Part shown: in pieces, positions 16,060-57,653 of the stretch
Layout: each line of letters starts with the position of its first letter
Position numbering within the stretch: the stretch's first letter is position 1
Notes under the pieces: model-generated
Seen by the model: the letters and a program-made list of their open reading frames with translations, nothing else
What the model was told of the DNA's origin: nothing
The model's database searches: none
Virus record (IMG/VR): IMGVR_UViG_3300018080_000099
Location: 128,001 to 192,000 of that record
Length of the DNA: 64,000 nt
Source of the DNA: a virus
Strand: one strand, 5' to 3'
Position numbers and translations under genes: made by a program

Positions 16060-16264
16060 AACCTTCTTCCTTAAAATAAATTAGTCTAATCGGGTCGTAG
16101 AATGCGTCATTACAATCCCTCATTTTGACAGCATCCAAAAGCATTTCCTTGACTTTGGGAACTTCTACGTTGTGGAATCCGAAAGTAGTTGAGATTCCCC
16201 AAGGGTTCGTAAAGGTTCCTTCCCACTCGTCAATGCTGACATGCTTGATACTCCAATACATCAT
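16031..16264 (-). CDS. Small hypothetical protein
   Basis: 77-aa ORF. Confidence 0.3.
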   Translation of the reverse strand: MMYWSIKHVSIDEWEGTFTNPWGISTTFGFHNVEVPKVKEMLLDAVKMRDCNDAFYDPIRLIYFKEEGYASDTVQQH

Positions 16265-16731: not shown

Positions 16732-16886
16732 TCTTCTATCAATTGAATTTTGTCTTTGATAGACTTAACAGATGACATCGTTCCGTGGTATGTATCTGCT
16801 ATTTCAGCCTGTCTGATATTCTCTCTGGCTTCTGACAAAGCCGAACTAAGCAGGCCTTGAAGAAATGTAATTTGTTCCTTGGTCAT
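16698..16886 (-). CDS. Small hypothetical protein
   Basis: 62-aa ORF filling the gap between its neighbours. Confidence 0.3.
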   Translation of the reverse strand: MTKEQITFLQGLLSSALSEARENIRQAEIADTYHGTMSSVKSIKDKIQLIEECYKELTKELV

Positions 16887-17890: not shown

Positions 17891-17966
17891 CGCTTATCTC
17901 CAAAAAAGAGGGAGAGCCTGTTGACAGACTCCCCCTTCAAATAAACCAATCTGATAACCAACTTTC

Positions 17967-40884: not shown

Positions 40885-43800
40885 ATGGCAACCTTTACTG
40901 ATGCACAAAACGGTAACTGGGCAGATACCAATTCGTGGAATGAAGTAGGATTTCCGGTAGCCGGAGATGATGTAACCATTTCAGCCTACAACATTTCGTT
41001 ATCCGCAGACGAAGCTTGTGCTAGCCTTGACATTCAAGGTGGAAACTTCAACTTTGGTACCGGCGGATATACCATGACTGTATCCGGTGACTATACAGTC
41101 GCCAACAGTTCAGGTTTAATCACTCAAGGAGATGGAACACTTTTCTTATCGGGTGATGGAAACCTTTCTACGCCCCATCAAGATAACGGGCCTGATTTAA
41201 TAAAATGTGCTAATTCTGGTTATACCACAACTCTGGCATCCACTTCGGAAGTTAGAAGTATGCGTTGGTTGGGCGGAACATTTGGTGTTGGAAGTAGCCA
41301 GCATATAGCCGTTGGTCAACAAGCAGGCGATGAAGACCTTGTATTTTCGGCAGACCCCGGAACAACGGCTACTGTTGGTGGTGGTGGAGAAATATACTTC
41401 TCTACGCGTAACAGCGAAACTCGTAATATTGCCGGTTTTGATTTTAATGCGGCTATTGGTTTAAGCTTTTTTGGTGCTGGTGATTTTAACATTTCGGGAA
41501 CCATTTTTAGAACTACTGGTGGTATTTGGAATTGGATGAATCCGGGTTCGTGGAATTTGTTAGGTGGTGTTAATGTCGATTGTGAAGGTCTACAGAACAA
41601 TGACTGTACTTTAAATACTGGAACTGGCACGCACATCTTTAGAAGTGTTACTACATTCACATCCAACGCAACTTTCAATTTTAGCGCATCTAACTGGATA
41701 CTTACAGGCGAGTGGGACCCTGGTTCAACCACCACAGTCAATACCCAACAAGGTACAATAACTTTCAGTGGAGGTTCAGACCAAGATGTTACCTCTCACG
41801 GTGAAACTTTACCAGACATAATTGTTGATAAGTCCGGTGGAACAGTTGCACAGCAAGACGATTTTAACTGTGAGGACTTTTCAATCTCCGGTGGAACATG
41901 GGACACTAACGGTGGTTCCAACTATGATTTGGATGTTGATGGAGACTTTTTACTAGCTGGTGGAACCATTGATGTACAAAGCTCTGATGTGCTTCTTGCC
42001 CAAGGATTCCTTAAAACAGGCGGAACGCTTACAGAAGATTCAAGTAGATGGATATTTAATGGAAATACAGGAACACATACTATCGACTCGTCTTCCGGCA
42101 TTCTTCCTACATTTATCGTTAGTGGAACAGGTGGAACATGGAACTGGGGTGGTACTAATGGATTTGATGCCGTTACAGTAGAAGCTGGAACATTCTCGCT
42201 TAACAACAACAGTAAACAGGTATCATGGACTTCATTGACTGTTAATGGTGGTTTCTTCGATGCTACCAATGGTACGATAGAACCTTATGGTGGAATCACG
42301 ATTGCTGATGCCGCAAACATTGCTGACTTTGGAACATCCAAGATTGTATTCCCTCTTGGTCAGTCTGTATCTAACCCTAACTCAACAAACCCGTTTTACA
42401 ACATTGTGGTTGATGATGGTACAGTAACCATGAACAGTGTTCTTCGCTGTGATGGTGAGATTCAGATTGATGGTGGTACTCTTGATGTTCAATCTTACGA
42501 TGTATACTGTGACGACCTTGACATCAATGGTGGCACATTGGATTTGTCTGATGCCGCCGGCCCTACAGTTTATATTACCGGAGATATAGATGCTACTGGT
42601 AGTGGAACGATTTCGGAAGGAAGTTCAACATTTGATTTTTATGGCGACACCGACCAAAACATAACAAGTAATGGAATAGCTTTTAATGATGTTGTCGTTA
42701 CAAATGTAGACGGTACTATACGTTTTGTAGACGCGTCAACAATATCAGGAACATTTGCACCGGGTAATGGCTCATCTACTGTTACTGTTGGTTTTGAAGA
42801 ATCGCAGAATCACTATTGGGGAGCATATGATGATACGAATGCTTCGGGTGATAGTACGGTTGTTTTAGTAAGTAATTCTCCGACAACGCAGTGGAACCTG
42901 ACAATAGGTTCAAACCAGTCAGCATTCCATACAGATGTAACTGACAGTAATTTGACAGGTAACACTATTGATGCTACCGCGGCAGGAAACGTCGATGGTG
43001 GAAACAACAGCGTAAATTGGATTTTCGCAGACGAGTCGAGTTCAAGCGAATCAAGCTCAAGTGAATCGAGCCAGAGTTCGCCGTCCTCAGAGTCGAGTAG
43101 TAGTGAATCGAGTCAGAGTTCGCCATCTTCGGAGTCAAGTTCATCTGAATCAAGCCCTTCCTCAGAGTCGAGTCCTTCGTCTGAATCTAGTTCAAGTGAA
43201 TCTAGTCCTTCATCGGAGTCGAGTTCATCTGAATCGAGTCAGAGTTCGCCTTCAAGCGAATCGAGTAGCAGCGAATCAAGTCCTTCGTCAGAGTCTAGTT
43301 CCAGTGAGTCTAGTCAGTCAAGTCCTTCGTCAGAATCAAGCCAGAGTTCGCCTTCCAGTGAGTCGAGTTCTTCACAGTCTAGCCCATCTTCGGAATCCAG
43401 TTCAAGCGAATCTTCTCCGTCAAGTCCGTCGTCGGAATCAAGCTCAAGTCAGTCTAGTCCTTCGTCGGAATCGAGTAGCGAATCGAGTCAGAGTTCAGAA
43501 TCGTCCGTAAGCGAGTCGAGTCAGTCGTCTGAATCTAGCGAATCCAGTTCAAGCGAATCTTCTCCGTCAAGTCCGTCGTCGGAATCCAGCAGTTCTGAAT
43601 CGAGTCTATCTTCGGAATCGAGTGAGTCGAGTTCCAGCGAATCTTCTCCTTCGTCTGAAAGTAGTTCCTCGCAGTCATCGCAGTCATCTGAATCTAGTGA
43701 GTCAAGTTCCAGCGAATCAAGTCCGTCGTCTGAGTCAAGTCAGTCGTCACCAAGCTCAGAATCAAGCAGTAGTGAATCGAGTCAGAGTTCGCCGTCGTCT

Positions 43801-45516
43801 GAATCGAGTAGTAGCGAATCAAGTCAGTCGTCACCAAGCTCAGAATCAAGCAGTAGTGAGTCCAGCTCAAGTGAATCGAGTCAGAGTTCACCATCATCGG
43901 AATCAAGCAGTAGTGAATCGAGTCAGAGTTCGCCTTCATCAGAATCTTCAGTAAGTGAATCAAGTCCGTCATCGGAATCAAGCTCAAGTGAGTCGAGCCA
44001 GTCGTCTGAGTCTAGCGAATCAAGTTCTTCGGAGTCTAGTCCGTCGTCTGAATCATCAGTCAGCGAATCAAGCCAGTCAAGTGAATCGTCCGTGAGCGAG
44101 TCGAGCCAGTCGTCTGAGTCGAGTGAATCAAGTTCCAGCGAATCTTCTCCGTCAAGTCCGTCGTCTGAGTCCAGCAGTTCCGAATCAAGCCCATCGTCAG
44201 AGTCAAGCGAATCAAGTTCTTCTCAGTCGAGTCCTTCGTCAGAGTCAAGCGAATCAAGTTCTTCTCAGTCGAGTCCTTCGTCAGAGTCAAGCGAATCAAG
44301 TTCTTCGGAGTCGAGTCCGTCGTCTGAATCTTCGAGTTCCGAATCGAGTCAGTCATCGCAGTCTAGTGAGTCAAGCTCAAGCCAGAGTTCACAGTCATCG
44401 GAATCGTCTAGTTCTGAGTCGAGTCCTTCGTCTGAGTCGTCTGAATCAAGCTCAAGCCAGTCATCACCATCGTCTGAATCTTCGAGTTCTGAGTCGAGTC
44501 CTTCTTCCGAATCTTCAAGTTCGGAATCAAGTCCTTCTTCCCAGTCGAGCCAGTCCGATGAATCAAGCTCAAGCATTTCAAGCTCAAGTGAGTCGAGTCC
44601 ATCTTCGGAGTCAAGTTCTTCTGAATCGAGTCCTTCGTCTGAGTCGAGTGAGTCCTCGCCGTCGAGTGAGTCAAGCTCAAGTGAGTCGAGTCCGTCGTCG
44701 GAATCAAGCGAGTCGAGTTCTAGCGAATCGAGCCCTTCATCTCAGTCGAGCGAATCTAGTTCCTCACAGTCGAGTCCTTCGTCACAGTCAAGCGAATCTA
44801 GTTCCTCACAGTCAAGTGAAAGCTCGCCATCTTCGGAATCTAGCAGCAGTGAATCTAGCTCATCTGAGTCGAGTGTAAGCTCACCGTCATCTGAATCAAG
44901 CGAATCGAGTTCTTCACAGTCGAGTGAAAGTTCTCCTTCGTCACAGTCGAGTGAGTCTAGTTCTTCTCAGTCAAGTGAATCTTCTCCTTCAAGTGAGTCG
45001 AGTTCTTCTCAGTCAAGTCAGAGTTCACCGTCATCTGAATCAAGCTCAAGTGAAAGCTCTCCTTCATCGGAGTCAAGCTCAAGCCAATCATCGGAATCAA
45101 GTCAAAGCTCTCCTTCGTCAGAGTCGAGCAGTAGTGAATCGAGTCCTTCGTCTGAATCAAGCGTATCTTCTGAGTCAAGTGAATCGAGTTCATCTAGTAG
45201 TTCGGAATCAAGTCAAAGCTCTCCTTCATCTGAGAGTAGCTCTTCGGAATCGAGCCAGAGTTCACCATCGTCCGAATCTAGCTCATCTGAATCAAGTCAA
45301 AGCTCGCCTTCATCTGAGAGTAGTTCTTCTCAGTCAAGTCAGTCGAGTCCAAGCTCAGAGTCGGAATCGAGCCAGTCATCGCCGTCAAGCGAATCAAGCG
45401 AATCAAGCAGTTCTGAATCAAGTCCTTCGTCTGAATCCAGTGAATCTAGTGAGTCAAGCTCAAGTTCGGCTACAACTCCACCAATGTTTTATTACTACAG
45501 ACGAAGAAGGCTATAA
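40885..45516 (+). CDS. Giant virion-associated protein: N-terminal Gly/Thr/Asn-rich beta-helix/adhesin-like domain (about 710 aa) plus a C-terminal tail of about 820 aa of Ser-Glu-Ser-Pro-Gln low-complexity repeats
   Basis: 1543-aa continuous ORF. Repeated GGT/TGG beta-solenoid-like units in the N-terminal half. The C-terminal half is almost exclusively SESSSSESSPSSESSQSSPS. Ends YYYRRRRL. Confidence 0.7.
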   Translation: MATFTDAQNGNWADTNSWNEVGFPVAGDDVTISAYNISLSADEACASLDIQGGNFNFGTGGYTMTVSGDYTVANSSGLITQGDGTLFLSGDGNLSTPHQDNGPDLIKCANSGYTTTLASTSEVRSMRWLGGTFGVGSSQHIAVGQQAGDEDLVFSADPGTTATVGGGGEIYFSTRNSETRNIAGFDFNAAIGLSFFGAGDFNISGTIFRTTGGIWNWMNPGSWNLLGGVNVDCEGLQNNDCTLNTGTGTHIFRSVTTFTSNATFNFSASNWILTGEWDPGSTTTVNTQQGTITFSGGSDQDVTSHGETLPDIIVDKSGGTVAQQDDFNCEDFSISGGTWDTNGGSNYDLDVDGDFLLAGGTIDVQSSDVLLAQGFLKTGGTLTEDSSRWIFNGNTGTHTIDSSSGILPTFIVSGTGGTWNWGGTNGFDAVTVEAGTFSLNNNSKQVSWTSLTVNGGFFDATNGTIEPYGGITIADAANIADFGTSKIVFPLGQSVSNPNSTNPFYNIVVDDGTVTMNSVLRCDGEIQIDGGTLDVQSYDVYCDDLDINGGTLDLSDAAGPTVYITGDIDATGSGTISEGSSTFDFYGDTDQNITSNGIAFNDVVVTNVDGTIRFVDASTISGTFAPGNGSSTVTVGFEESQNHYWGAYDDTNASGDSTVVLVSNSPTTQWNLTIGSNQSAFHTDVTDSNLTGNTIDATAAGNVDGGNNSVNWIFADESSSSESSSSESSQSSPSSESSSSESSQSSPSSESSSSESSPSSESSPSSESSSSESSPSSESSSSESSQSSPSSESSSSESSPSSESSSSESSQSSPSSESSQSSPSSESSSSQSSPSSESSSSESSPSSPSSESSSSQSSPSSESSSESSQSSESSVSESSQSSESSESSSSESSPSSPSSESSSSESSLSSESSESSSSESSPSSESSSSQSSQSSESSESSSSESSPSSESSQSSPSSESSSSESSQSSPSSESSSSESSQSSPSSESSSSESSSSESSQSSPSSESSSSESSQSSPSSESSVSESSPSSESSSSESSQSSESSESSSSESSPSSESSVSESSQSSESSVSESSQSSESSESSSSESSPSSPSSESSSSESSPSSESSESSSSQSSPSSESSESSSSQSSPSSESSESSSSESSPSSESSSSESSQSSQSSESSSSQSSQSSESSSSESSPSSESSESSSSQSSPSSESSSSESSPSSESSSSESSPSSQSSQSDESSSSISSSSESSPSSESSSSESSPSSESSESSPSSESSSSESSPSSESSESSSSESSPSSQSSESSSSQSSPSSQSSESSSSQSSESSPSSESSSSESSSSESSVSSPSSESSESSSSQSSESSPSSQSSESSSSQSSESSPSSESSSSQSSQSSPSSESSSSESSPSSESSSSQSSESSQSSPSSESSSSESSPSSESSVSSESSESSSSSSSESSQSSPSSESSSSESSQSSPSSESSSSESSQSSPSSESSSSQSSQSSPSSESESSQSSPSSESSESSSSESSPSSESSESSESSSSSATTPPMFYYYRRRRL
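43024..45480 (+). repeat. Degenerate tandem repeat of about 42 nt encoding the Ser-rich tail
   Basis: Repeated tcgagttc(a/t)agcgaatc(a/g)agc... units throughout. Confidence 0.85.
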
Positions 45517-46105: not shown

Positions 46106-46951
46106 ATGGCTAACTGGGTAGGGGTATATAACGCCGGTTGGTTCGGAGAAGGCACGACCAATTCCGACCCATTATCGGTATTCCATCACGGATGGTTCGT
46201 GAGTATGGAGATTAGCGGGGTTTCACCCTCTGCTAGCGTCTATGATAGCGTCTATCTGAACTACCAGAATGTCCCGAACCAGTATATCACCAAATGTATC
46301 AATAGCAGCTATGGCGGTTCCGTAGGAAACTATAACAACGAAAGAGAACTGTTCGATGTTCTTGTCACTGAAGCTTACAACAAGCACGGTGTCTGCATGG
46401 ATTACTACGTCACATCGTATGATAAGGCGTATGATAAGATTTGGGGCGAGGACAACGATAGAAGATACGTCCGCAGATTCGAAGTCATGGCATTCTTCAC
46501 ACTTCCGAGAGAGGAAAGACTCTGGACTAAGTTCGGAATTGAAGGCCTTGACTCATTTAGTATGTACGTTTCCAAGAGGCACTTCTGGACGGCTTCACAA
46601 TACGATGCCGCTCAGACAACTCCAAATGCTTATAGTCCGTATATTCCTAAAGCAGGAGACTACATTTACTCTAAATACAACAAATATGTCTATGAGATTG
46701 TCGAAGTAAAAGACGAAATCATGATGAACTTGCTGTCCAAACAGCACGTTTGGGAATTCATGGTGAAGCCATTCAAGGACGAACATATCGAAACCACGAG
46801 TCTTACATCGGCATCACCAATGTCAGCTATCACGAATAAGGATAGCGACAAGTTTGATATTACCAGTGTTGTGGACGCTAAGAAGCCAGATGTTAACTAT
46901 CAACCGCCTCCAACTGAGGAAGGTCCAGACGACCCATTTGGCAATTGGTAA
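46106..46951 (+). CDS. Hypothetical structural protein
   Basis: 281-aa ORF with ATG/TAA overlap. Confidence 0.5.
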   Translation: MANWVGVYNAGWFGEGTTNSDPLSVFHHGWFVSMEISGVSPSASVYDSVYLNYQNVPNQYITKCINSSYGGSVGNYNNERELFDVLVTEAYNKHGVCMDYYVTSYDKAYDKIWGEDNDRRYVRRFEVMAFFTLPREERLWTKFGIEGLDSFSMYVSKRHFWTASQYDAAQTTPNAYSPYIPKAGDYIYSKYNKYVYEIVEVKDEIMMNLLSKQHVWEFMVKPFKDEHIETTSLTSASPMSAITNKDSDKFDITSVVDAKKPDVNYQPPPTEEGPDDPFGNW

Positions 46952-46965
46952 AATAAGGAGGAAAC

Positions 46966-47265
46966 ATGGCAGAAGGTTTTAAGGACTTCAGAAGCAATAA
47001 AGAAAAGCCAAGAGAGGACTTGACAAAGAACGCTGATTGTCAGGAAGCTATCAGGGAACATATTATGGAAAAGATGGGAGTCAGTAATAACGCTCTTGTT
47101 TCCTTGGTTGTTCACGCTACAAGAAACACACCTGTCAATGAAAATGATGTTAAGGAACTTGAGTTTTTCGGATATATTGCCGAAGGAACAATAACCACAA
47201 AGGGAAAAGCTTTTCTTGACGAAGAAGAAACTATCGACAGATTGAAGAAAATGATTGGGTATTAA
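46966..47265 (+). CDS. Hypothetical protein
   Basis: 99-aa ORF with AGGAGG upstream. Confidence 0.45.
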   Translation: MAEGFKDFRSNKEKPREDLTKNADCQEAIREHIMEKMGVSNNALVSLVVHATRNTPVNENDVKELEFFGYIAEGTITTKGKAFLDEEETIDRLKKMIGY

Positions 47266-48244
47266 GCCAATGGCACATATTGATGATGTTAGCAGGAAAG
47301 CTATTGAAGATTTTTTGAGGTCAAAAGATTCCCTTATTGGGAATCTTTTGTCGTTAGATGAAAAATCAGCTATCATGGACCAGCTCTATCCACGTCCAGA
47401 TAGTCCGGCTCCTGTTACGTCTGCAATTCAGGTCGTTAGAGAAGAGGTTGACGTTGAAGAAATCCTTAGTCGAATCCTTATGAACGAGGATATAGTTGCC
47501 CGGTTCAAAGGAGATAAGGGTGACAAAGGCGACAAGGGAGATGACGGAGAAAGCGTCATTGGCGAACAGGGGCCTCCGGGTAAGGACGGTAAAGCTGGAA
47601 AGAGAGGTCCGAGAGGAACCAAAGGTAAAGATGCTGACGTTGAAGAAATTCTAAGAAGGCTTCAAGACGATATTGAGTTCATTCAAAGAGTTCGTGGGTC
47701 TGGTCCAGCTTGGTTAGTTGGCGGCGGAGGCGGAGGAGAGAACAACTCCATTTCTGATGTGGGTGGTGGAACCGGACTTTACTACGGCAAACATGGCTCA
47801 GAACTACAACTCAAATCTCTTTCAGGAGATAACATCACGATTGAGGATGGCGGAGACACTGTTAACTTCTCAGGCGTCAAGTCAGTTTGTATTACTCCAT
47901 TTGAATCTATTTCAGCTGTTCAAATCGAAACAGGAACGATTGCATTCGCTGTTCCTTCTGAAATCAATAACTATGACTTAACCGCAGCTGTAGCTACTGT
48001 TCATGATGCTGGAACCGGCACAGGTTCTATTGATGTTCAGATAAGACGTAGAAGAAACGGCTCCGATGTTGATATGCTAACATCCCCAATAACTCTATCA
48101 GTTGGTGAATTCTTTGCCACTGACGGAGTCATAAATACAGGTAATAATACCGTTCAAACAGGAGACCAAATCTTCATAGATGTGGATTCAGTGACAACAA
48201 CTCCTCCGAACGGATTAGCTGTAACACTGACATTTAGAAAGTAA
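47255..48244 (+). CDS. Fibre-like protein with a short collagen-like Gly-X-Y segment and a GGGGENNSI module shared with the ORF at 57923
   Basis: GDKGDKGDKGDDGE...GPPGKDGKAGKRGPRGTKGKD (about 14 GXY triplets) flanked by DVEEIL..R repeats, then GGGGGENNSISDVGGGTGLYY. Confidence 0.55.
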   Translation: MGIKPMAHIDDVSRKAIEDFLRSKDSLIGNLLSLDEKSAIMDQLYPRPDSPAPVTSAIQVVREEVDVEEILSRILMNEDIVARFKGDKGDKGDKGDDGESVIGEQGPPGKDGKAGKRGPRGTKGKDADVEEILRRLQDDIEFIQRVRGSGPAWLVGGGGGGENNSISDVGGGTGLYYGKHGSELQLKSLSGDNITIEDGGDTVNFSGVKSVCITPFESISAVQIETGTIAFAVPSEINNYDLTAAVATVHDAGTGTGSIDVQIRRRRNGSDVDMLTSPITLSVGEFFATDGVINTGNNTVQTGDQIFIDVDSVTTTPPNGLAVTLTFRK

Positions 48245-48601: not shown

Positions 48602-51313
48602 ATGGCTGTAGGAGATGTATGTAAATATCGGGTTTCGACACATGCGTTACCAACTTCAGAAGATGTTTGGGAAGGTGTCGCCTTTGGTACAACTGTAGGA
48701 ACACCAGCCACCATCTATTCGATGAGCGCCAACAACATCGACATTCAGATAAACGAAACTGGATGGTATCTCGCTACATATCGTGTTAGAACTGAAGGTG
48801 AAGCTAATAACCGAAACATTCTAAGATGTAAAGCTGTATATGATAGAACTGATATTGAAGGTGCTATCGGAACTCGTTATTATCGAAACGATGCCAATGA
48901 TGAAGTTTGTCCAACCGCTCACTGCTTATTTGAAGTAACCGCAACAGGTAACTTCTTTAGAGTTGAAGCATTGGTTCGTGGAGAAGATTCGACACCAACA
49001 GATGATGCTACAACTGATAGTGAAGTTCAGTTGGTTCGACTTACAGATGAAACAGCCGCGTCCTATGCAAACTATACTGATGGTTCAGATACAGGAAGTT
49101 ATGGTACGACTACTTGGGATGGATTATCGTGGGATACTGTTGAAGATGAAACCGACACATCCGTCATCGAATTAAGCGCAGACGGAGAGACGGTTGAATT
49201 AAAAGAGATTGCAAGGTATCTTGTTTCGTACAATGTGACCTTCCAACATACAAACCGTTCCGCTAGAATTGGTCGAGCAACTCTTAATGGTGTCGAACTT
49301 CCAAACTCAAATAGTCAGCTATATCTTAGAGATACTGATGTTGACTTTAACTCCTTGAATGCTCTTTTCATTGTTGATGTTAGTGCTGCTAATTCTACAC
49401 TGAAAATAGAGGCACAGGTCGGTGATAACTCAAGTGGAGGGTCAAGAGTAGTAAATGCAAGCAGACTTGGTGTCATGCGATTGCCTGATACGGCTGAGGT
49501 TGTTATTGGTAGGGATGATACTGGTGGGCAGGAAATGGGTGGGGCTGGTAATGTTACCCTAATCAACTCATGTAGAACTACGCCCACAATTGACGCCGCA
49601 TCTTTTACAAGGAATGATAATACTACAATCGAAGTCGAGAAAGATGGTAACTATCTATTCATGCTTAATGGTAGATTGAATAGAGGGACTTCAACAGGTA
49701 CAAGATGTCAGATTCTTTCTCGATGGACATTGAATAATGTAGACCAACAGGTTCTTTCTACGTGCTACATTCGAGGTCTTCAGTCATCTCTTTACACATA
49801 CGATGGTGGATATGGTGCTTCATTTATAGCCAACCTTTCAGCTAATGACCAAATTGAGTTTGAGTCATTTGAGCAGGGTGATAACGGATTAGCACAGACA
49901 GTTGGTGGTAGTATTGGTATGGCGGCTTTGAACCTTGATACTTTGTTAGGTGAGGAATCAAGCTCCGAGTCAAGCTCACAATCGCAAGATATTTCATCAG
50001 AATCTTCTGAGTCTAGTTCATCTCAGTCAAGTCCTTCGTCAGAATCCAGCAGTAGTGAATCGAGCCAATCTTCTCCGTCAAGTCCTTCGTCTGAGAGTTC
50101 ATCTTCTCAGTCAAGTCCTTCTTCGGAATCGAGTTCCTCAGAGTCCAGTGTTTCGTCACCGAGTTCTGAGTCGTCAAGCTCACCGTCAAGTCCTTCGTCT
50201 GAATCGTCATCGTCTGAATCGAGTCAGTCTAGCCCATCTTCGGAGTCTAGTTCAAGCGAGAGTTCGGAGTCGAGTCCTTCGTCTGAGTCCAGCAGTTCGG
50301 AATCAAGCCCATCATCCGAAAGCAGTTCTTCTCAGTCAAGCCCATCTTCTGAGTCAAGTTCTAGCCAGTCCAGTCCTTCGTCCGAGTCGTCCGAATCGAG
50401 TCCTTCATCCGAAAGTAGTTCTTCTCAGTCAAGTCCTTCTTCCGAATCAAGCCCTTCTTCGGAATCGAGTTCTAGCCAATCTTCGCCGTCATCGGAATCG
50501 AGTTCTAGCCAGTCTAGTCCTTCATCGGAGAGCAGTTCTTCTCAGTCAAGTCCTTCGTCTGAATCCTCGGAATCGTCAAGCTCACAATCAAGCCCATCGT
50601 CCGAGTCGAGCAGTAGCGAAAGTTCTCCTTCGTCTGAGTCGTCTGAATCAAGCTCAAGTCAGTCTAGTCCTTCGTCCGAATCAAGTTCATCGGAATCGAG
50701 CCTGTCAAGTCCTTCATCTGAGAGTAGTTCTTCTCAGTCAAGTCCTTCGTCAGAATCTAGTTCCAGTGAATCGAGTGTTTCTTCTCCTTCTTCGGAATCG
50801 AGTAGTAGTGAAAGCTCTCCTTCGTCCGAATCTAGCGAATCAAGCTCAAGTGAATCGAGCCCATCTTCGGTATCGTCCGAATCAAGCTCAAGCGAATCTA
50901 GTCCTTCATCGGAATCTTCGAGTTCGGAATCAAGCTTGTCATCACCGTCAAGCCAGAGTGAAGAAAGTGAATCGTCTGAATCAAGTTCTAGCCAGTCATC
51001 TCCTTCGTCTGAATCAAGCTCATCCGAATCAAGCCAGTCGTCGCTTTCATCTGAATCAAGTTCCAGCGAAAGTTCGGAATCAAGCCCGTCGTCACCATCG
51101 TCAGAATCAAGTAGTAGCGAATCAAGTCCTTCGTCTGAATCCAGTTCAAGTGAATCAAGCCCATCTTCGGCATCGAGTGCTTCGTCAGAATCAAGTTCAT
51201 CATCGGTATCAAGCGCTTCTTCGGAATCTAGCTCATCCGAATCTAGTTCATCCGAGGGGCCACAACCCATAGTTGGTAGGAGACTAAATAACCGTATAAT
51301 GATGTTGTCGTAA
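48602..51313 (+). CDS. Second large virion-associated protein: N-terminal folded domain of about 445 aa plus a C-terminal Ser-Glu-Ser repeat tail of about 440 aa
   Basis: 903-aa ORF. The tail composition is identical in style to that of 40885-45516. Confidence 0.7.
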   Translation: MAVGDVCKYRVSTHALPTSEDVWEGVAFGTTVGTPATIYSMSANNIDIQINETGWYLATYRVRTEGEANNRNILRCKAVYDRTDIEGAIGTRYYRNDANDEVCPTAHCLFEVTATGNFFRVEALVRGEDSTPTDDATTDSEVQLVRLTDETAASYANYTDGSDTGSYGTTTWDGLSWDTVEDETDTSVIELSADGETVELKEIARYLVSYNVTFQHTNRSARIGRATLNGVELPNSNSQLYLRDTDVDFNSLNALFIVDVSAANSTLKIEAQVGDNSSGGSRVVNASRLGVMRLPDTAEVVIGRDDTGGQEMGGAGNVTLINSCRTTPTIDAASFTRNDNTTIEVEKDGNYLFMLNGRLNRGTSTGTRCQILSRWTLNNVDQQVLSTCYIRGLQSSLYTYDGGYGASFIANLSANDQIEFESFEQGDNGLAQTVGGSIGMAALNLDTLLGEESSSESSSQSQDISSESSESSSSQSSPSSESSSSESSQSSPSSPSSESSSSQSSPSSESSSSESSVSSPSSESSSSPSSPSSESSSSESSQSSPSSESSSSESSESSPSSESSSSESSPSSESSSSQSSPSSESSSSQSSPSSESSESSPSSESSSSQSSPSSESSPSSESSSSQSSPSSESSSSQSSPSSESSSSQSSPSSESSESSSSQSSPSSESSSSESSPSSESSESSSSQSSPSSESSSSESSLSSPSSESSSSQSSPSSESSSSESSVSSPSSESSSSESSPSSESSESSSSESSPSSVSSESSSSESSPSSESSSSESSLSSPSSQSEESESSESSSSQSSPSSESSSSESSQSSLSSESSSSESSESSPSSPSSESSSSESSPSSESSSSESSPSSASSASSESSSSSVSSASSESSSSESSSSEGPQPIVGRRLNNRIMMLS
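49946..51250 (+). repeat. Ser-rich-tail coding repeat (paralogous to 43024-45480)
   Basis: Same degenerate 42-nt unit. Confidence 0.85.
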
Positions 51314-51330: not shown

Positions 51331-53025
51331 ATGAGCGTTGAATTGACTTTTAGTACATGTGACAGAATACCAATCCCATTCGAGAACCACTACAAAAACT
51401 CTTCATGTTTCTTGGTGCTTTCCGGCCCGTCATTGAACAATCACGACCTGACAAAGATTCAGCAACCGGGTATTACCACATTTGGCGTAAACAATTCTCC
51501 GAAAGCATTTAGGCCCAACATGTGGATTTGTGTGGACCACCCTTCAAGGTTCATGATTAGCATATGGAAAGACCCGAACATTACTAAGTTCGTGCCGTTC
51601 TTTAAAGCCAAATCTAACCTCTTTGATAACTTCAACTGGCAGAACACCGACAGAAGGGTTATGGATTCTCCGAATGTTGTGTACTACCATCGGAACGAAC
51701 AGTTCAATCCCGACACATTCTTGACTGAAAAGACTGTCAACTGGGGAAACCACAAGAAGTATGGTGGTGGCCGAAGTGTTATGATGGCGGCACTGAAGAT
51801 TTGCTATCTGCTGGGATTCAAAAACGTGTTCCTGCTTGGATGTGACTTCAAGATGGAGAAGGATAAGCAAAACTACTCATGGGAACAAAACCGAAGTGTC
51901 GGTTCCGTGAGAGGAAACAACAGCACATATAATAAAATGATTGATAGATACACGAAGCTTCAACCGATTTTTGAGGAGAAGGACTTCCATGTGTACAACT
52001 GCAATCCCGACTCTCAGCTTCAAGTCTTTCCGTACATGTCCTATGACGATGCCGTGGCAACTGCATTGAAAGAGTTCCCTGATGTGAAAACAGAAAGAGC
52101 TGAAGGAATGTATGACAGATTTGATGCTGAAGAAAAGAGGAAAAAGGATAAAAAGAAAATGAAGCAAATTGAGAAAATCAAGAAGTCCGAGAAACCGATT
52201 GAAGGCTCTTGTGGAGTCATCTATTACAATGTGGGTAAGGGAGCCTTGGTAAGACTTGCGGTATCTCTTGCAACTTGTGTGAATCACTACCCTAAAGACA
52301 AGATAACAATTCTGGCAGACTATGAAGGCTACAATGAATGTAAGAAGATTGCAAAACACTTCGGAGTCAACTTGAAAATCATTGAACTGGAAAAGCTTGA
52401 CAAGAAGGAAGTCCTTCTCAATAAGTGTTTGGCACACACATACACACCTTATGACAATACGATATTCATAGATTCTGATACCATTGTACTGGGAAGCTTT
52501 GATGAACTACATGATGAAGCTGAAAAGCATGAATTCGTAACTACACAGTTCTCAGACTGGCTAACCACAAGGGGAGTCATTAAGAAAAGAATCAAGGAGT
52601 GGAAGCCTATCTTCCCAGATATGATTGGTGAAGCTCTCAAGGAGAGGCCATCAGTCAATGTGGGTGTCTTTGCATTTCGTAGGGATAGTGAATTTATGAA
52701 GGTGTGGTTTGATTATGCTAAGCATGGAACTCACATGTTCATTCCTGATGAACAATGCTGTCATTTGCTTATACCAAAGTTCAAGAACAGTATCGTATCA
52801 CACGACTACAACTCAAGTTGTAAGTATGACGAAATAACCGATTCCACCAAGATTCTTCACTTCCACGGAAGGAAGCACTGTCGAGTGGACGAAGATGGAA
52901 CATACAAATTCAATAGCGACAAATGGTATGCTGAGTTTGACAAGATTAGAGAGTTGGACTTTGTTAAGGACAATATCCAACACGATAGACAACTGAGAAA
53001 GCATTTACCGATGAGGGACAAATGA
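51331..53025 (+). CDS. Two-domain putative glycosyltransferase: N-terminal Maf/CstII-like (GxGPSL...GCDF) domain and C-terminal GT8/GT-A-like DxD domain
   Basis: LVLSGPSL and LLGCDFKM motifs in the N-terminal half. YNVGKGALVRLAVSLATCVNHY followed by IDSDTIV (DxD) in the C-terminal half. 564 aa. Confidence 0.5.
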   Translation: MSVELTFSTCDRIPIPFENHYKNSSCFLVLSGPSLNNHDLTKIQQPGITTFGVNNSPKAFRPNMWICVDHPSRFMISIWKDPNITKFVPFFKAKSNLFDNFNWQNTDRRVMDSPNVVYYHRNEQFNPDTFLTEKTVNWGNHKKYGGGRSVMMAALKICYLLGFKNVFLLGCDFKMEKDKQNYSWEQNRSVGSVRGNNSTYNKMIDRYTKLQPIFEEKDFHVYNCNPDSQLQVFPYMSYDDAVATALKEFPDVKTERAEGMYDRFDAEEKRKKDKKKMKQIEKIKKSEKPIEGSCGVIYYNVGKGALVRLAVSLATCVNHYPKDKITILADYEGYNECKKIAKHFGVNLKIIELEKLDKKEVLLNKCLAHTYTPYDNTIFIDSDTIVLGSFDELHDEAEKHEFVTTQFSDWLTTRGVIKKRIKEWKPIFPDMIGEALKERPSVNVGVFAFRRDSEFMKVWFDYAKHGTHMFIPDEQCCHLLIPKFKNSIVSHDYNSSCKYDEITDSTKILHFHGRKHCRVDEDGTYKFNSDKWYAEFDKIRELDFVKDNIQHDRQLRKHLPMRDK

Positions 53026-54410
53026 GAGATTTTACAATCGTAACAGCCTGCACGCCGGACTATCTGACGAAGCTTCAATGGAGTTTGCCGTCATGGAATA
53101 CGAAGCCTCAGTTCAGGGGTAAGAAGATGATTCTATTCCACCACGGCTTTGACAACCTGAAAAATCTCAGGTTTGTCAAGAAGCATTTCGATGTCAAGTT
53201 TGTGCATTGGGATATGCCAGAGTACGCCAATGTGAGAGAGTTAATGCTCTCGTCATTCATTCTGGGTTCGGCTAGGTATGTCAAAACCAAATACTTTGTG
53301 AAGATAGATGCCGACACCTATTTCACGAATCCAGACGATGTGTTTGGTAGGAGAGATTTCAGGTACGATGTCGTGTCTCATAAATGGAGATATACGAAGC
53401 CGGGCCATTGGATAAACGACTTGGACAAATACTACTTGGACAAAGATACAGGTAAGTATGGAAGATTGTACCACGAGCCAAGAATACAAAGTATATGTTG
53501 CCTACACAAGACAGAGTTTGTTAGGAGACTAGCTGAAAGATTTGGTGAGAGACTTCCTGTGCCGAGTCACGACACGGTTCTATGGTACTTTGCTGATAGA
53601 ATGCCGGACAGGAGTTGGAAGGGTAGGAACCTGAGAAAGCGAGGAGTCGGTCATGCATCTCAATGGAAAACCATTCGGGAAGGTGTTTGTGCTACCGGCG
53701 ATGCCAACAACGCATTCCTTAGAGATAGTTTGATGAATAACATTCAACTGGAAGTGACTTCATTCTGCCAGTTGGGATGTTTCAACTGTGATAGGAACTG
53801 TGGCATTTACAAGGATGCTACATATATCCCATTGGAGGATATTCAGAAGTTTGTGGACGATTCTATCCGGTTCAATAAGAAGTGGAGTCGTATAGATATT
53901 ATTGGAGGCGAGCCGACATACTATCCGTACTATCAGCAGATGTTTGAAGTGATTAAACAGTATAAAGATTTTTACCCAAAGTGTCGAGTCAGATTCAGCA
54001 CGAATGGTTTGGGTAAGTTTGTCAATGAGAGATTGAAGGAGATTCCGGCATGGGTTCATGTTAGAAACTCCAACAAGTCAAGTCGGAAGCAGGCATTCAC
54101 TTCATACAATTCGGCACCAGTTGACAACGGGGAAACCGAAATAAAGGCTTGCTCGATTCCGTGGAGATGTGGAATGGCTTTGACACAACACGGATACTTT
54201 ATCTGTGGTGCCGGTGCTTCCCTTGCCAAGGTGTTTCAGTTTGATATTGGTATCAAGAACTTTGAGGAAGTGGAGCCGGGCAGACTACTGAATCAGATTC
54301 CAATTCTGTGTAAGTACTGTGGACACAGCAACTGCAAGAGTAAGCATATAACGGAAGTTGAAGAAATCAGTGAGAGCTGGCAAAAAGCATTGGATAAAAG
54401 GGAAAAGTAA
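53022..54410 (+). CDS. Fusion protein: glycogenin-like GT8 glycosyltransferase N-terminal domain plus a radical-SAM domain with a SPASM/twitch-like C-terminal Cys cluster
   Basis: FTIVTACTPDYL together with KIDADTYF (the GT8 A-VT...DY and DxD motifs). Then CQLGCFNC (CxxxCxxC) and IDIIGGEPTYY (the GGEP SAM motif). Then C-terminal CSIPWRCG...CKYCGHSNC. Confidence 0.6.
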   Translation: MRDFTIVTACTPDYLTKLQWSLPSWNTKPQFRGKKMILFHHGFDNLKNLRFVKKHFDVKFVHWDMPEYANVRELMLSSFILGSARYVKTKYFVKIDADTYFTNPDDVFGRRDFRYDVVSHKWRYTKPGHWINDLDKYYLDKDTGKYGRLYHEPRIQSICCLHKTEFVRRLAERFGERLPVPSHDTVLWYFADRMPDRSWKGRNLRKRGVGHASQWKTIREGVCATGDANNAFLRDSLMNNIQLEVTSFCQLGCFNCDRNCGIYKDATYIPLEDIQKFVDDSIRFNKKWSRIDIIGGEPTYYPYYQQMFEVIKQYKDFYPKCRVRFSTNGLGKFVNERLKEIPAWVHVRNSNKSSRKQAFTSYNSAPVDNGETEIKACSIPWRCGMALTQHGYFICGAGASLAKVFQFDIGIKNFEEVEPGRLLNQIPILCKYCGHSNCKSKHITEVEEISESWQKALDKREK

Positions 54411-55348
54411 TGGGAGCTTTTTATAAGACGTTTAATGAAAAGATACGAGAGGTTTGGAAGCTAGCAACCCAACTGGACAAACCAGTACGAGAGAACCTTA
54501 CATGGACTGTTGGTATTATCAATGGTAGATGTGACTTTGAGGATTTACAGGCACATGGAGCCGCCCTCATGGCAAGCATCATCATTAAGGAGAAAGTAGT
54601 TCCCAAAATCATTTGTGTCTGGGACACCCCGACTGATACTAACACCAGTAAGTGGGACCTTGAGGAAAGACAACGAATCTATCCTTTGTATCTTTTAAGA
54701 CTGTTTGACGAATTTGATGAAAGCTTTTTGGAGAAACCAAAGATATTCAGCTGCAATCGGCTGAGTAACCAATATGTTTCGTTACACAGGGCCGGTTGGT
54801 CAGTCAATCCAATTCCATCAGGATTGACGCTTGGTTATAGGGCTAAGTATCTTGGTTTGAATTATGTCAGGACGACGCACGCTATCATGTCAGATATTGA
54901 TACTATATGCACGGATGAGTGCTGTGATTATGTTCAGGAAAACATTGATAGAAACCCAGAGACCTTTTGTTTAACGAATTACTACGATAATGAGAATGTG
55001 AGTGTAGGGCTTGTAGCATTCAACATGCGAAAGTACAGAGAAGTCTATTTACCACTGTGGCATGAGATGTATTGGAAGTTACCGAAAGCCGATGCTAAGT
55101 TCATTCAAGCTATTCGGAAAGAATATCTTGAATGTCAGGATGAGCTTGATATACAATTGATGGACAAGAACGTTGTCAACACTGAAAAATACTACCACAA
55201 TATTCCAAGGAAGAATCACTGGGTAGATGATAAGTCAAAACACTACCATGCTTGGAAAGGTGAGATGGAGCAAAACACCGAAGAGTTCAATAGCTTCTAT
55301 AACGACATACTGGACAATCTAATAAAGGATGCAAAAACAAATGATTGA
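54410..55348 (+). CDS. Hypothetical protein within the glycosylation cluster
   Basis: 312-aa ORF with ATG/TAA overlap on both sides. No motif recognised. Confidence 0.45.
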   Translation: MGAFYKTFNEKIREVWKLATQLDKPVRENLTWTVGIINGRCDFEDLQAHGAALMASIIIKEKVVPKIICVWDTPTDTNTSKWDLEERQRIYPLYLLRLFDEFDESFLEKPKIFSCNRLSNQYVSLHRAGWSVNPIPSGLTLGYRAKYLGLNYVRTTHAIMSDIDTICTDECCDYVQENIDRNPETFCLTNYYDNENVSVGLVAFNMRKYREVYLPLWHEMYWKLPKADAKFIQAIRKEYLECQDELDIQLMDKNVVNTEKYYHNIPRKNHWVDDKSKHYHAWKGEMEQNTEEFNSFYNDILDNLIKDAKTND

Positions 55349-56081
55349 AATGTGTGTAGTGTGTTACAACTTTCAGAGAAGATGGACAATGCAGTTAGCT
55401 TCTTTGGCTCAGCAAATAGAACCACCGGACTTCATAATCAATGTTGCTTATGTCAAGGACAACGGCAACCCGGATGTAGAAACGGTTGTGAATTTCTATG
55501 AGCAAAAGGGACTAAAGTTCAAGTTGACTCCATATGAGCATATGGGTAAAGGTAGAGGGCTCATCAGGAATCGACAGGTTCAAAAATCTTCGGAAGATTG
55601 GTTACTGTTTATGGACTGTGATTTGATTTACCACCCTACGTTTTTTCAAGGGATAGCAAAGCATATGAACCCGGACTGTCAAAACGTAATCGGAGTGCCG
55701 AATATTGCTTATACAAGGGTTGAGAATGTGAATCCATTTTTTGACAATTTTGAATCTATGTATGTTGAATCAGCTTATGATGTAGCGAAATCATTTGGGA
55801 TAACAAGAACGCATGGTCAGAAAAGGAAGGGAGCCAATGGAGGCTTCCAATTGGTTAGGAGAGAAATGGTGATGGAGAAGTGCAAAGGTAGATATGTAAA
55901 TCCCAAACGAACAGGTGATAAGCAGATGGGCCACATGGGAACCAGAAGCGATATTAAGTTCAGACAAGCTATTGATGGAGGGGCATACAGGTCGAAAATG
56001 ATTAATACACTACCAGTACAAATTCACCTTGAACATTGGCGAAAGATAGATGAACAATTTAACATCGAGGCACAACGATGA
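55329..56081 (+). CDS. Family 2 (GT-A) glycosyltransferase
   Basis: GKGRGLIRNRQVQKSSEDWLLFMDCDL, the GT2 signature (ARNxG...FLDxDD pattern). Confidence 0.65.
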   Translation: MQKQMIEMCVVCYNFQRRWTMQLASLAQQIEPPDFIINVAYVKDNGNPDVETVVNFYEQKGLKFKLTPYEHMGKGRGLIRNRQVQKSSEDWLLFMDCDLIYHPTFFQGIAKHMNPDCQNVIGVPNIAYTRVENVNPFFDNFESMYVESAYDVAKSFGITRTHGQKRKGANGGFQLVRREMVMEKCKGRYVNPKRTGDKQMGHMGTRSDIKFRQAIDGGAYRSKMINTLPVQIHLEHWRKIDEQFNIEAQR

Positions 56082-56746
56082 AGCTACATTCAAATACGAG
56101 AAGGGTTTTGTTTGAGGAACTAAAGCAAGAATGTTATGGCCTGAAAATGATTTCTCAGGACAGCATTCCAAATATGATTGACATTGGAGCTAATGTTGGA
56201 ATGTTATCAATCATGGCAAGATTGCTTCATCCTCATATGAATATATTTGCTTTTGAGCCCCACGAAGAAACGTTTAAGGATTTGAAAGAGAATGTTGACA
56301 ATCTGAGAATCAAAACATACAGGTATGCTTTTGGAAATGGCGACGTGTTCTACTTGACAAAAGAGAGAAAGATGGACTTGTGTAATAGTTTTAGTACTGA
56401 AAAGAACATTATTAATAAGACACAAGAAATCCAAAGTCTCGACCTTGAGCAAATTTTCAAGATGGTTAGTGTTGAACCAGAGGACACATTCCTCAAAATA
56501 GATTGTGAGGGAGCTGAAACGTTTATGGTGGATTGCCCGAAGTCAATTGAGTTACTGAAAAGAACAAAGCTTGTTGCAATGGAAGCTCATGAAAAGGACG
56601 CTGTGATTAAGCTAAAACCCTTCATAGAATGGTTTATGAAAACGATGTGGGGAACACATACAGTAATCATTGACAAGCAAACCAGTGTTGTGGCGAAGTT
56701 ATTAGCCGTTGAAAAATCTTATTACAGGAGCCAGTTATCCATATGA
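56078..56746 (+). CDS. FkbM-family SAM-dependent methyltransferase
   Basis: MIDIGANVGMLS...NIFAFEP, the FkbM domain signature. Confidence 0.7.
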   Translation: MKLHSNTRRVLFEELKQECYGLKMISQDSIPNMIDIGANVGMLSIMARLLHPHMNIFAFEPHEETFKDLKENVDNLRIKTYRYAFGNGDVFYLTKERKMDLCNSFSTEKNIINKTQEIQSLDLEQIFKMVSVEPEDTFLKIDCEGAETFMVDCPKSIELLKRTKLVAMEAHEKDAVIKLKPFIEWFMKTMWGTHTVIIDKQTSVVAKLLAVEKSYYRSQLSI

Positions 56747-57297
56747 TTTGGCACAAACAATTTCCGAAACTTATACAACACATAGCGAAGGGCATGAGTG
56801 TAAGCAATGGCTTAAACAACTACTTGGAGCTGGGTGTGTTTCGGGGTAGGACTTTTAATAGAGTTGCCCCATATGCCAAGAATGCCTATGCCGTTGATAT
56901 GAAGAAGGTTTTCTACAAATATATCGCCCACAACGAGAACCTCGTGTGGTACAGATGTACCACGGACGAGTTCTTTGAACAGTTGGACGAGAATACGATG
57001 TTTGATTTAGTATTCATAGACGCTAACCATTCCCGTGAGAATAGCATGAGGGACTTTAAGAACTCTTTTAAGCACTTAAATGGGAATGGAATAATCTTAT
57101 TGCATGACACTTATCCACCGGACGAATCTCAGATTACTGATGGAATCAATGGATGTGGCACAGCATATCAAACGGCTTTAGAAATTAAGCAGGAATGGGG
57201 AGAAGTCTGTGAAATAACGACACTTCCGTTCTGGTTTGGGATTTCAATAGTGAGGAAAATTTCAAATAATGTTCAGCTATATTGGAAAGGAGAGTAA
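56743..57297 (+). CDS. Class I SAM-dependent O-methyltransferase (TylF/MycF-like)
   Basis: YLELGVFRGRT (motif I) and DLVFIDANHS (DxDH). Confidence 0.65.
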   Translation: MIWHKQFPKLIQHIAKGMSVSNGLNNYLELGVFRGRTFNRVAPYAKNAYAVDMKKVFYKYIAHNENLVWYRCTTDEFFEQLDENTMFDLVFIDANHSRENSMRDFKNSFKHLNGNGIILLHDTYPPDESQITDGINGCGTAYQTALEIKQEWGEVCEITTLPFWFGISIVRKISNNVQLYWKGE

Positions 57298-57653
57298 TCA
57301 TGATTAAGCAATCCAAGATTTGGGGTGAAACAAGTAAATTCTTTTCAAAGAATAATGTGGAGATACATAGACTAAATATAACTGAGGGAGGCTATTGTAG
57401 CGAACACTACCACAACTTTAAGTACAACATGTTCTTAGTTGAGAGTGGTGAGATTGAAGTGACAATCTATCGTGATAATGGTATCAAGGAAACGACAGTT
57501 TTGAAGGATTGTGACCAGACTACAGTTCCCCCGAATTTCATTCATCGCTTCAAAGCCAATAAGGATTCAGTAGTCTATGAAATATATTGGGTTGCCCTTG
57601 AAGGTGAAGATATTGAGAGGCGTACTGTTGGAGGGACAACAGTAATAGAATGA
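57282..57653 (+). CDS. Cupin-fold protein (sugar epimerase/isomerase-like, RmlC/FdtA type)
   Basis: SEHYHNFKYNMFLVESGEIEV cupin motif. 123 aa. Confidence 0.45.
   Translation: MERRVIMIKQSKIWGETSKFFSKNNVEIHRLNITEGGYCSEHYHNFKYNMFLVESGEIEVTIYRDNGIKETTVLKDCDQTTVPPNFIHRFKANKDSVVYEIYWVALEGEDIERRTVGGTTVIE

Follow-up and report, generated by a model that had tools for sequence, protein, structure and literature searches.

We analyzed the gene at 53022..54410 on the plus strand of a 64,000-nucleotide stretch of viral DNA (positions 128,001 to 192,000 of IMG/VR record IMGVR_UViG_3300018080_000099; hereafter, the window). It encodes a 462-amino-acid (aa) protein in which a predicted glycosyltransferase domain of the GT-A fold is joined to a radical S-adenosylmethionine (SAM) domain. 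The start codon of the gene overlaps the stop codon of the gene upstream (ATGA), and its stop codon overlaps the next start (TAATG), with a one-base overlap with the gene at 54410..55348. These overlaps on both sides indicate that the gene is embedded in a translationally coupled operon. Conservation was counted in an alignment of 32 sequences of the full fusion family (A1) and in a 142-sequence alignment representing the wider family of the radical-SAM half. The gene and its features are as follows.

53022..54410, plus strand: whole gene, an ATG-initiated open reading frame (ORF) of 462 aa with a GT-A domain, a linker at about aa 222-238 and a Twitch radical-SAM domain
53022..53726, plus strand: GT-A-fold glycosyltransferase domain, aa 1-235, predicted from fold comparison and a DxD motif
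53307..53315, plus strand: DxD motif D96-A-D98, the presumed metal and nucleoside diphosphate (NDP)-sugar site, from translation, conservation and the model
53379..53411, plus strand: near-invariant motif H120-x-W-G/R-Y-T-K-P-G-x-W130, aa 120-130, from column counts
53727..54407, plus strand: minimal radical-SAM core and Twitch sub-domain, aa 236-462, from PF04055, the model and the alignment
53766..53789, plus strand: CX3CX2C motif CQLGCFNC, aa 249-256 (C249, C253, C256), predicted ligands of the SAM-binding [4Fe-4S] cluster, from translation and alignment
53904..53915, plus strand: GGEP, predicted SAM-binding motif, G295-P298, 95-100% conserved in A1 and in the 142-sequence alignment
54150..54320, plus strand: Twitch sub-domain with C377, C395, C430 and C433 as predicted auxiliary-cluster ligands, plus C383, from conservation and topology

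A preliminary description of this DNA had read the gene as a GT8 glycosyltransferase fused to a radical-SAM/SPASM domain. All of the motifs that it quoted lie in one frame of the ORF, including FTIVTACTPDYL at aa 4-15, KIDADTYF at aa 94-101 and GGEP(T) at aa 295-299.

We searched 5.8 billion proteins and obtained 134 relatives of the protein, about 100 of which were full length (450-490 aa, 39-77% identity, 98-100% coverage). The identical protein was found on three contigs, one of 264 kb. Across A1, the invariant residues are D96, K94, W122, P127 and S182-H183-D184 in the N half and C249/C253/C256, G295-G296-P298, C377, C395, C430 and C433 in the C half. An AlphaFold2 model built on A1 was confident across the domain junction (predicted local distance difference test score [pLDDT] 94.3, predicted template modeling score [pTM] 0.87). 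The claim of a single polypeptide combining a glycosyltransferase-fold domain with a radical-SAM domain and an auxiliary Cys cluster was thus borne out: PF04055 passes, the AlphaFold2 model is confident, and there are about 100 full-length relatives. The opposite view, that two genes had been joined by a sequencing or assembly frameshift or that the C half is a decayed, inactive radical-SAM remnant, has one relative in its favor. In P0116, the N domain is followed by a degenerate remnant lacking CX3CX2C. However, about 100 independent clusters, which stem from different samples and assemblers, have the same continuous ORF, the identical protein occurs in three contigs, the catalytic motifs are all invariant, and the model is confident over the junction. 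We therefore give an artefact next to no chance. The homologue clusters, the alignment and the identical protein on three contigs exclude the frameshift, which the preliminary description had named as the finding that would split the two halves.

P0116 is a 298-aa protein (locus L021, 9989-10885) that carries the N domain and then 'QIWKFVEESL...WKWKR', with no CX3CX2C. As read from its sequence, it shows an apparent loss of the radical-SAM module in some lineages. Among predicted viral structures (BFVD, searched with Foldseek) we found no two-domain counterpart of the fusion; the best match (query TM score [TMq] 0.37) covered only the GT-A domain. A scan of GTDB species gave 10 matches, all on contigs of metagenome-assembled genomes (MAGs). 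One was full length, that in L020, a 10.9-kb contig binned as Methanosarcinales. We set aside an origin as a bacterial gene or prophage, the 10 matches being most likely phage contigs binned with cells. The short MAG contigs L020-L029 are labelled Methanosarcinales, Dehalococcoidia, Planctomycetota, Bacteroidales and so on and carry the phage cassette described below, and they are probably phage contigs misbinned into MAGs. Judging by the sample names, they may come from anoxic waters, sediments or reactors.

The C half has the CX3CX2C motif, the GGE motif and the partial TIM-barrel fold of radical-SAM enzymes. Pfam PF04055 matched aa 244-331 at 31.2 bits, above the gathering score of 29.5, which confirmed the radical-SAM assignment of the preliminary description. 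The same model matched 32 of 32 A1 members at E ≤ 1 (best, 2.5e-10). CX3CX2C is invariant in A1 (32/32) and was found in 136 of 142 sequences of the wider family, where it is 96% conserved. In NCBIfam, no family came near its cut-off for either the protein or its stand-alone relatives. Profile searches of the PDB matched only radical-SAM enzymes of the SPASM/Twitch clade (CteB, YydG, Tes, MoaA, SpeY and BtrN), with family-profile E-values of 3e-11 for YydG, 4e-10 for CteB, 4e-7 for SpeY and 3e-5 for BtrN; all of these matches span only the first ~100 residues of the C half, the generic SAM-binding region. By fold, the nearest neighbors of the modelled C half are SpeY and BtrN, Twitch radical-SAM dehydrogenases that act on sugar-like alcohols. 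The structural alignment with SpeY covers 196 of the 227 C-half residues. Since the core before the Cys group is only ~130 residues long, a superposition of 196 residues must cross the auxiliary sub-domain.

We then asked to which kind the auxiliary domain belongs. SPASM domains are defined by the seven-Cys motif CX9-15GX4C-gap-CX2CX5CX3C-gap-C, which binds two auxiliary clusters; Twitch domains are truncated SPASM domains with one cluster and a beta-hairpin followed by a helix, and their cysteines flank the hairpin, one on each side, with two more following the helix (PMC6231123). The chain order that we see in the model and sequence is C377, a hairpin (385-388/391-393), C395, a helix (396-405) and C430-x2-C433. 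The corresponding spacing, CX15-19CX30-36CX2C, is present in 138 of 142 members of the wider family. Downstream of the radical-SAM core, these are the only four universally conserved cysteines in the 142-sequence alignment (1.00, 0.96, 1.00 and 0.99 for C377, C395, C430 and C433). The SPASM motif CX2CX5CX3C was found in 0 of 32 fusion proteins and 0 of 142 members of the wider family, CX9-15GX4C was found in 0 of 32, and PF13186 (SPASM) matched none of the 32. Thus, of the "SPASM/twitch" cluster of the preliminary description, Twitch was retained on the four-Cys order with its hairpin and helix, and SPASM was ruled out by the missing CX2CX5CX3C motif and the missing PF13186 match. The auxiliary domain is, as modelled, a Twitch domain with four predicted ligands for one [4Fe-4S] cluster. 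Two further cysteines are conserved: C383 (85% in the 142-sequence family and at least 90% in A1) and C260 (75% in the 142-sequence family). Both, like the invariant D368, are candidates for a catalytic role.

The N half folds, in the model, as a Rossmann-like alpha/beta/alpha sandwich with DxD at the end of the central strand, as GT-A enzymes do. D96 is invariant in A1 and D98 is at least 90% conserved, and both directly follow strand 91-95, the usual place of the GT-A DxD. Foldseek against the PDB ranked GT31, GT2, GT8, GT24 and GT6 enzymes together, with GT31 and GT2 as high as GT8; the GT8 enzyme GlyE was among the matches. Against viral models, only glycosyltransferases were matched. No family in Pfam, NCBIfam or PHROG matched the N half, and PF01501 (GT8) matched neither the protein nor one of the 32 A1 members at E ≤ 1. 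By hhalign, a broad N-domain profile did match the GT8-like domain encoded in the neighboring gene (probability 86%, E 5e-6, 99 columns), a domain that is itself borderline GT8 (P0110, 24.2 bits versus a cut-off of 24.3), and it showed no significant relation to profiles of the 312-aa protein at 54410..55348, the GT2 or the MptE-like domain. In GT8 enzymes, a C-terminal HxxGxxKPW motif binds metal and diphosphate. The HxxGxxKPW-like motif of the N domain (family form H-x-W-G-Y-T-K-P-G-W-W, with R in place of G in our protein) lies only 22 residues after the DxD and not near the C terminus; in the neighboring GT8-like domain, H-x-[HY]-G-x-K stands at the canonical position in 23 of 24 sequences. 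The DADT of the protein is identical to the glycogenin motif.

The N domain is therefore best described from these comparisons as a GT-A glycosyltransferase-type domain that appears distantly GT8-like, with GT8 membership unproven. A glycosyltransferase-type N half stood from the preliminary description, and the motifs that it called GT8 are present in frame. The GT8 assignment itself was not upheld: there is no PF01501 match in the 32 members, GT31 and GT2 rank equally, and the motifs, which amount to a generic GT-A DxD signature, are not confirmed as diagnostic of GT8. The lack of a matching glycosyltransferase model in Pfam, the closeness of the fold scores and the fusion of some radical-SAM-module relatives to histidine phosphatase would also suit a domain that is no Leloir glycosyltransferase at all. 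The N half would then transfer sugar 1-phosphate on a GT-A fold, as a Stealth-like enzyme, or act as a nucleotidyltransferase, and the fusion would couple radical chemistry to a phospho-sugar or activation module. We consider this very unlikely, as hhalign ties the N domain to its GT8-like neighbor at 86% probability and metal-dependent GT-A transferases typically carry their DxD where a beta-strand ends.

The cassette that holds the fusion gene has two methyltransferases and four or five domains of glycosyltransferase type and is placed between a neck protein and the portal. Its neighbors in the window are as follows.

51331..53025, plus strand: MptE-like (Maf/sialyltransferase-like) and GT8-like protein, whose stop overlaps the start of the fusion gene (Pfam MptE-like 1.1e-6, GT8 0.0053; phrog_4603 1e-9)
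54410..55348, plus strand: 312-aa protein with an invariant DxD (SDIDT, aa 161), matching no Pfam, NCBIfam or PHROG family
55329..56081, plus strand: GT2 glycosyltransferase (PF00535, 6.3e-9), conserved in the cassette
56078..56746, plus strand: FkbM-family methyltransferase (TIGR01444, 1.2e-16, above cut-off)
56743..57297, plus strand: Methyltransf_24 (CmcI-like) methyltransferase (Pfam, 2.7e-11)
57282-57653: 123-aa protein, conserved across the cassette
46106-46951, plus strand: neck protein, T4-type
47255-48244, plus strand: collagen-like protein
48602..51313, plus strand: candidate acceptor 1, a 903-aa fibre-like protein with a weak BclA_C-like globular part and then ~450 aa of ~70% Ser, chosen by composition
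40885..45516, plus strand: candidate acceptor 2, 1543 aa, with residues 700-1543 ~70% Ser, chosen by composition

The Ser tracts of the two candidate acceptors are ~840 and ~450 residues long and consist of ~70% Ser, 15% Glu and 7% Pro. BclA is an exosporium glycoprotein. A Ser content of at least 20% was found in only 2 of the 98 window ORFs of at least 120 aa, and both are within 12 kb upstream of the fusion gene.

We compared 31 loci from viral contigs, MAG contigs and assemblies. Extremely Ser-rich ORFs (36-73% Ser, up to 1782 aa) accompany the cassette at a distance of less than 10 kb in L003, L005, L006, L007, L009, L010, L011 and L021. The suggestion of a Ser-rich substrate in the preliminary description fits this conserved neighborhood, in which poly-Ser ORFs adjoin the cassette in related contigs. 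In L006, a 1070-aa protein with 42% Ser (15350-18562, plus strand) has a C-terminal homologue of the T4-type neck protein, with 65% identity to that at 46106-46951. This fusion suggests that the Ser tracts may form collar or neck "hairs." The 312-aa gene was found only in loci carrying the radical-SAM half, and 6 of the 8 radical-SAM-positive loci that extend far enough downstream have FkbM, compared with 1 of 19 radical-SAM-negative loci; both co-occurrence counts come from loci that are not phylogenetically independent.

The two halves of the protein are modular. The N domain co-occurs with MptE-like and GT8-like domains in ~29 of the 31 loci, and across phage contigs these three are fused in almost every order: GT8-like - N in many loci, N - GT8-like in L024-L026, MptE - N in L023, MptE - N - GT8-like as a 1415-aa protein in L028 and N - GT8 - N in L027. 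The N domain is joined to the radical-SAM half in 11 loci and to GT2 in L010. In P0007, a CmcI-like methyltransferase (Methyltransf_24) is placed N-terminal to the N-radical-SAM pair. Thus, the radical-SAM half is an optional accessory to a conserved glycosyltransferase trio.

The radical-SAM half is also widespread by itself. A phmmer search with it against 1.84 billion representatives returned 848 clusters at E ≤ 1e-3, 506 of them at E ≤ 1e-10. Among the best 141 near-full-coverage relatives, 101 stand alone (200-320 aa, typically ~240 aa) and 23 are longer than 520 aa. We scanned 20 of the long radical-SAM-module proteins with Pfam. Eleven had GT2, two had histidine phosphatase, and GT-B, sulfotransferase, methyltransferases, a 2Fe-2S ferredoxin and a second radical-SAM/SPASM unit were each found in one, with nothing recognisable in three. 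When the module is fused, its partner is therefore usually a glycosyltransferase. The stand-alone members adjoin GT2 genes, once in the tail region of another phage, and one GT2-...-radical-SAM protein is encoded beside UDP-glucose dehydrogenase, GT2 and an ATP-binding cassette (ABC) transporter, in a polysaccharide-type locus without a poly-Ser protein. The recurrent partners, all of them sugar-handling enzymes, make the strongest case for the module acting on glycans.

The fusions to the 2Fe-2S ferredoxin, the sulfotransferase, histidine phosphatase and the second radical-SAM/SPASM unit are P0198, P0128, P0200/P0266 and P0189, respectively. The fused ferredoxin could possibly be a built-in electron donor. 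The stand-alone member of the other phage has 239 aa and lies near tail genes, between a 308-aa unknown protein and a GT2 (L032, 5649-9586). Just upstream of it is a second radical-SAM protein, of 486 aa, and giant proteins, of 1245 and 1703 aa, are encoded next to these.

We propose, with moderate confidence, that the protein is a bifunctional enzyme that both builds and tailors glycans, within a cassette that O-glycosylates poly-Ser virion fibres; the reaction and the substrate are those that we infer. We are more confident in the narrower description of a glycan-tailoring radical-SAM enzyme fused to a glycosyltransferase and less confident in the exact reaction. With an NDP-sugar and a divalent metal, the GT-A domain would extend the growing O-glycan on the Ser tracts by a sugar. 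The radical-SAM domain would cleave SAM reductively to give a 5'-deoxyadenosyl radical, which would abstract hydrogen from a carbinol carbon in one of the sugars of this glycan. Two outcomes could follow. In one, the auxiliary cluster would take up an electron to leave a keto-sugar, as in BtrN and, presumably, SpeY. In the other, a cysteine (C383 and C260 being the candidates) would return a hydrogen atom to give an epimer, as in HygY and NeoN. Either way, a rare sugar would be made in situ from common host NDP-sugars, and the neighboring methyltransferases and glycosyltransferases would elaborate it. BtrN oxidizes a secondary alcohol by two electrons, with its auxiliary cluster as the proposed electron acceptor (PMC9012708). 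For HygY, the title of a paper in the reference list of PMC10991966 states that one cysteine decides between epimerase and dehydrogenase. The proposed alcohol oxidation rests on fold proximity in the model and on the glycan context, with which epimerase chemistry would be equally compatible.

It is also conceivable that the radical-SAM half acts on the protein acceptor, converting Ser to formylglycine (anSME-like) or L-Ser to D-Ser (YydG-like) in the poly-Ser tract and so creating or protecting a glycosyltransferase site. The putative substrate is ~70% Ser, in the PDB, YydG (3e-11), a peptide epimerase, and CteB (4e-10), a sactisynthase, match best by sequence, and anSME and other SPASM/Twitch enzymes act on peptide Ser or Cys (PMC6231123). 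However, those matches are confined to the generic SAM-binding first ~100 residues, whereas the whole-domain fold neighbors are alcohol dehydrogenases. The half has only 227 aa, with no SPASM motif, no second auxiliary cluster of the anSME kind and no RiPP recognition element (RRE) or other peptide-binding domain. The module is moreover fused to GT2, sulfotransferase and methyltransferase and occurs in the polysaccharide-type locus without a poly-Ser protein. We therefore judge action on the protein acceptor unlikely. The preliminary description had offered modification of the Ser acceptor itself as one option, which finds little support here, given the absent SPASM motif and the glycan enzymes among the fusion partners.

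The acceptor proposed for the whole cassette also has to be weighed against other targets, and for this we considered the phage. The window is part of a T4-like phage, as the gene content of both strands shows. The minus-strand block encodes DNA polymerase, clamp loader, UvsX, a gp46/47-like nuclease, primase, helicase, gp32, RNase H, deoxynucleoside monophosphate (dNMP) kinase and ribonucleotide reductase, and the plus-strand block encodes the T4-type neck protein, the collagen-like protein, fibre-like proteins and the portal (phrog_213, 1e-100). Two more glycosyltransferases are encoded in the replication module at 5964-6749 and 28797-29990 (both minus strand; Glyco_tranf_2_5, phrog_7162), near the dNMP kinase, clamp loader and gp46/47-like nuclease. 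These two are candidates for DNA glycosylation, apart from the cassette in the structural module. No RNA family turned up when 40-64 kb was scanned with Rfam.

Among the roles of phage glycosyltransferases, DNA glucosylation and serotype conversion are the best known, and a dNMP kinase is encoded in this T4-like phage. The cassette might thus serve DNA glycans (hypermodified bases) or host envelope polysaccharide or lipopolysaccharide (LPS), with the poly-Ser genes as mere neighbors. That virus-encoded enzymes put diverse glycans on DNA is reported by Pyle et al. 2024, as cited in PMC12619734, and Iyer et al. read cyanophage glycosyltransferase clusters as surface-polysaccharide systems (PMC7824862). 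However, the cassette belongs to the structural module, with the neck, collagen-like and fibre genes on one side and the portal on the other, and the glycosyltransferases at 5964-6749 and 28797-29990 are better candidates for DNA modification. Extreme poly-Ser ORFs adjoin the cassette in at least 8 divergent contigs, and in L006 the Ser tract is fused to the neck homologue. The MptE-like (Maf-type) domain, for its part, is associated with Ser/Thr O-glycosylation of flagellins. A target other than the virion fibres therefore seems to us improbable, to about the same degree as action on the protein acceptor.

Several observations weigh against our proposal of a fibre-glycosylating, glycan-tailoring enzyme. 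The function of SPASM/Twitch enzymes is hard to predict from fold or similarity (PMC6231123), and the closest solved enzymes by sequence are the peptide-modifying YydG (3e-11) and CteB (4e-10), ahead of SpeY and BtrN. The radical-SAM half is absent from 19 of ~30 loci. In L004, the cassette is present but no strongly Ser-rich ORF is found in the 17 kb covered. The window has no aminotransferase or reductase that would consume a keto-sugar. Lastly, the spatial clustering of C377, C395, C430 and C433 is read from topology.

The domains of the protein are of known kinds, and the fusion, the family and the cassette are without a curated model, a GenBank phage relative or a viral two-domain counterpart. 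In 50,697 GenBank phage records, we found no relative by tblastn with the protein or by megablast with 10 kb. The phage thus belongs to a lineage without a deposited relative in these records, and the fusion that the preliminary description proposed to seek in public phage genomes is absent from them. In the 8 million full-text papers that we searched, which leave many subscription journals outside, we found no description of glycosyltransferase/radical-SAM fusions or of Ser-rich fibre glycosylation in phages, and a jumbo-phage survey makes no mention of radical SAM (PMC7824862). In calling the architecture unusual, the preliminary description was thus right as far as this literature goes. The fusion is nevertheless not rare in sequence space, as fusions of the module to glycosyltransferases are common in metagenomes.

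We further suggest, more tentatively than the proposal for the protein itself, that the module represents a large family of minimal (~230-aa) Twitch radical-SAM units that tailor sugars already in protein- or polymer-linked glycans, by oxidation to a keto-sugar or by epimerization, and are often fused to the glycosyltransferase that installs them. Glycosylation of a virus particle would thereby gain, in T4-like phages, its first radical-SAM-dependent step. To our knowledge, the radical-SAM enzymes that modify carbohydrates are nearly all from antibiotic pathways, and their substrates are small molecules. A module with 848 representative clusters and no curated family, smaller than BtrN and repeatedly fused to glycosyltransferases, sulfotransferases and methyltransferases, would point to unexplored radical chemistry in glycan biosynthesis. 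The position of the cassette beside virion proteins with ~70% Ser tracts suggests that the fibres are glycosylated heavily and in an unusual way, in a manner comparable to the serine-rich-repeat adhesins of bacteria. Fibres of this kind could influence how the phage recognizes its host and adheres to particles or mucus, and how well the virion is shielded. If the proposal is true, rare sugars would be placed on poly-serine "hairs" without dedicated NDP-sugar pathways.

Among known enzymes, the C half is most like BtrN (butirosin) and SpeY (spectinomycin). They share with it a very small radical-SAM core with CX3CX2C and GGE and a C-terminal Twitch hairpin and helix with four cysteines for one auxiliary [4Fe-4S] cluster. 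BtrN and SpeY act on secondary alcohols of sugar-like rings in free aminocyclitols, whereas our protein would presumably act on protein- or polymer-linked glycans. Identity to them is 15-17%, with the profile aligning over the first ~100 residues only, and our protein differs in being fused to a glycosyltransferase, in being phage encoded and in its extra conserved C383 and C260. The radical-SAM carbohydrate epimerases HygY, NeoN and AviX12, which we liken to it by description, belong to the same clade and begin with the same step, hydrogen abstraction from a sugar carbinol carbon. The spare conserved cysteines of our family recall the deciding cysteine of HygY. These epimerases stand alone in antibiotic pathways, in contrast to the fused phage protein; AviX12 acts on an assembled oligosaccharide.

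The N domain shares the GT-A fold and DxD with the GT8 enzymes LgtC, glycogenin and GlyE. It is unlike them in having no PF01501 match (32/32), in carrying its HxxGxxKPW-like motif 22 residues after the DxD and in its size of only ~235 aa. The closest functional analogy is GlyE, which glycosylates a bacterial serine-rich repeat protein. The Gram-positive serine-rich-repeat systems (GtfA/B, Gly, Gtf) and Maf flagellin glycosylation resemble the cassette in that several glycosyltransferases act in sequence and a long Ser-rich tract is involved, and they share with it GT8-type and MptE-like (Maf-type) domains. The cassette differs from them in being tied to phage virion proteins and in having neither a GtfA/B (GT4) pair nor an accessory Sec system. 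We know of no radical-SAM enzyme described in the serine-rich-repeat or Maf systems.

Virion glycosylation has precedents in viruses. Capsid and tail glycans of mycobacteriophages are attributed to Freeman et al. 2023 where PMC12619734 cites that work, and a further precedent is fibril glycosylation in giant viruses (PMC4691112). As in our cassette, glycosyltransferase genes in these systems lie beside structural genes and modify virion proteins. The mycobacteriophage and giant-virus systems are without radical SAM or a poly-Ser acceptor, whereas the cassette described here is much larger and belongs to a T4-like phage.

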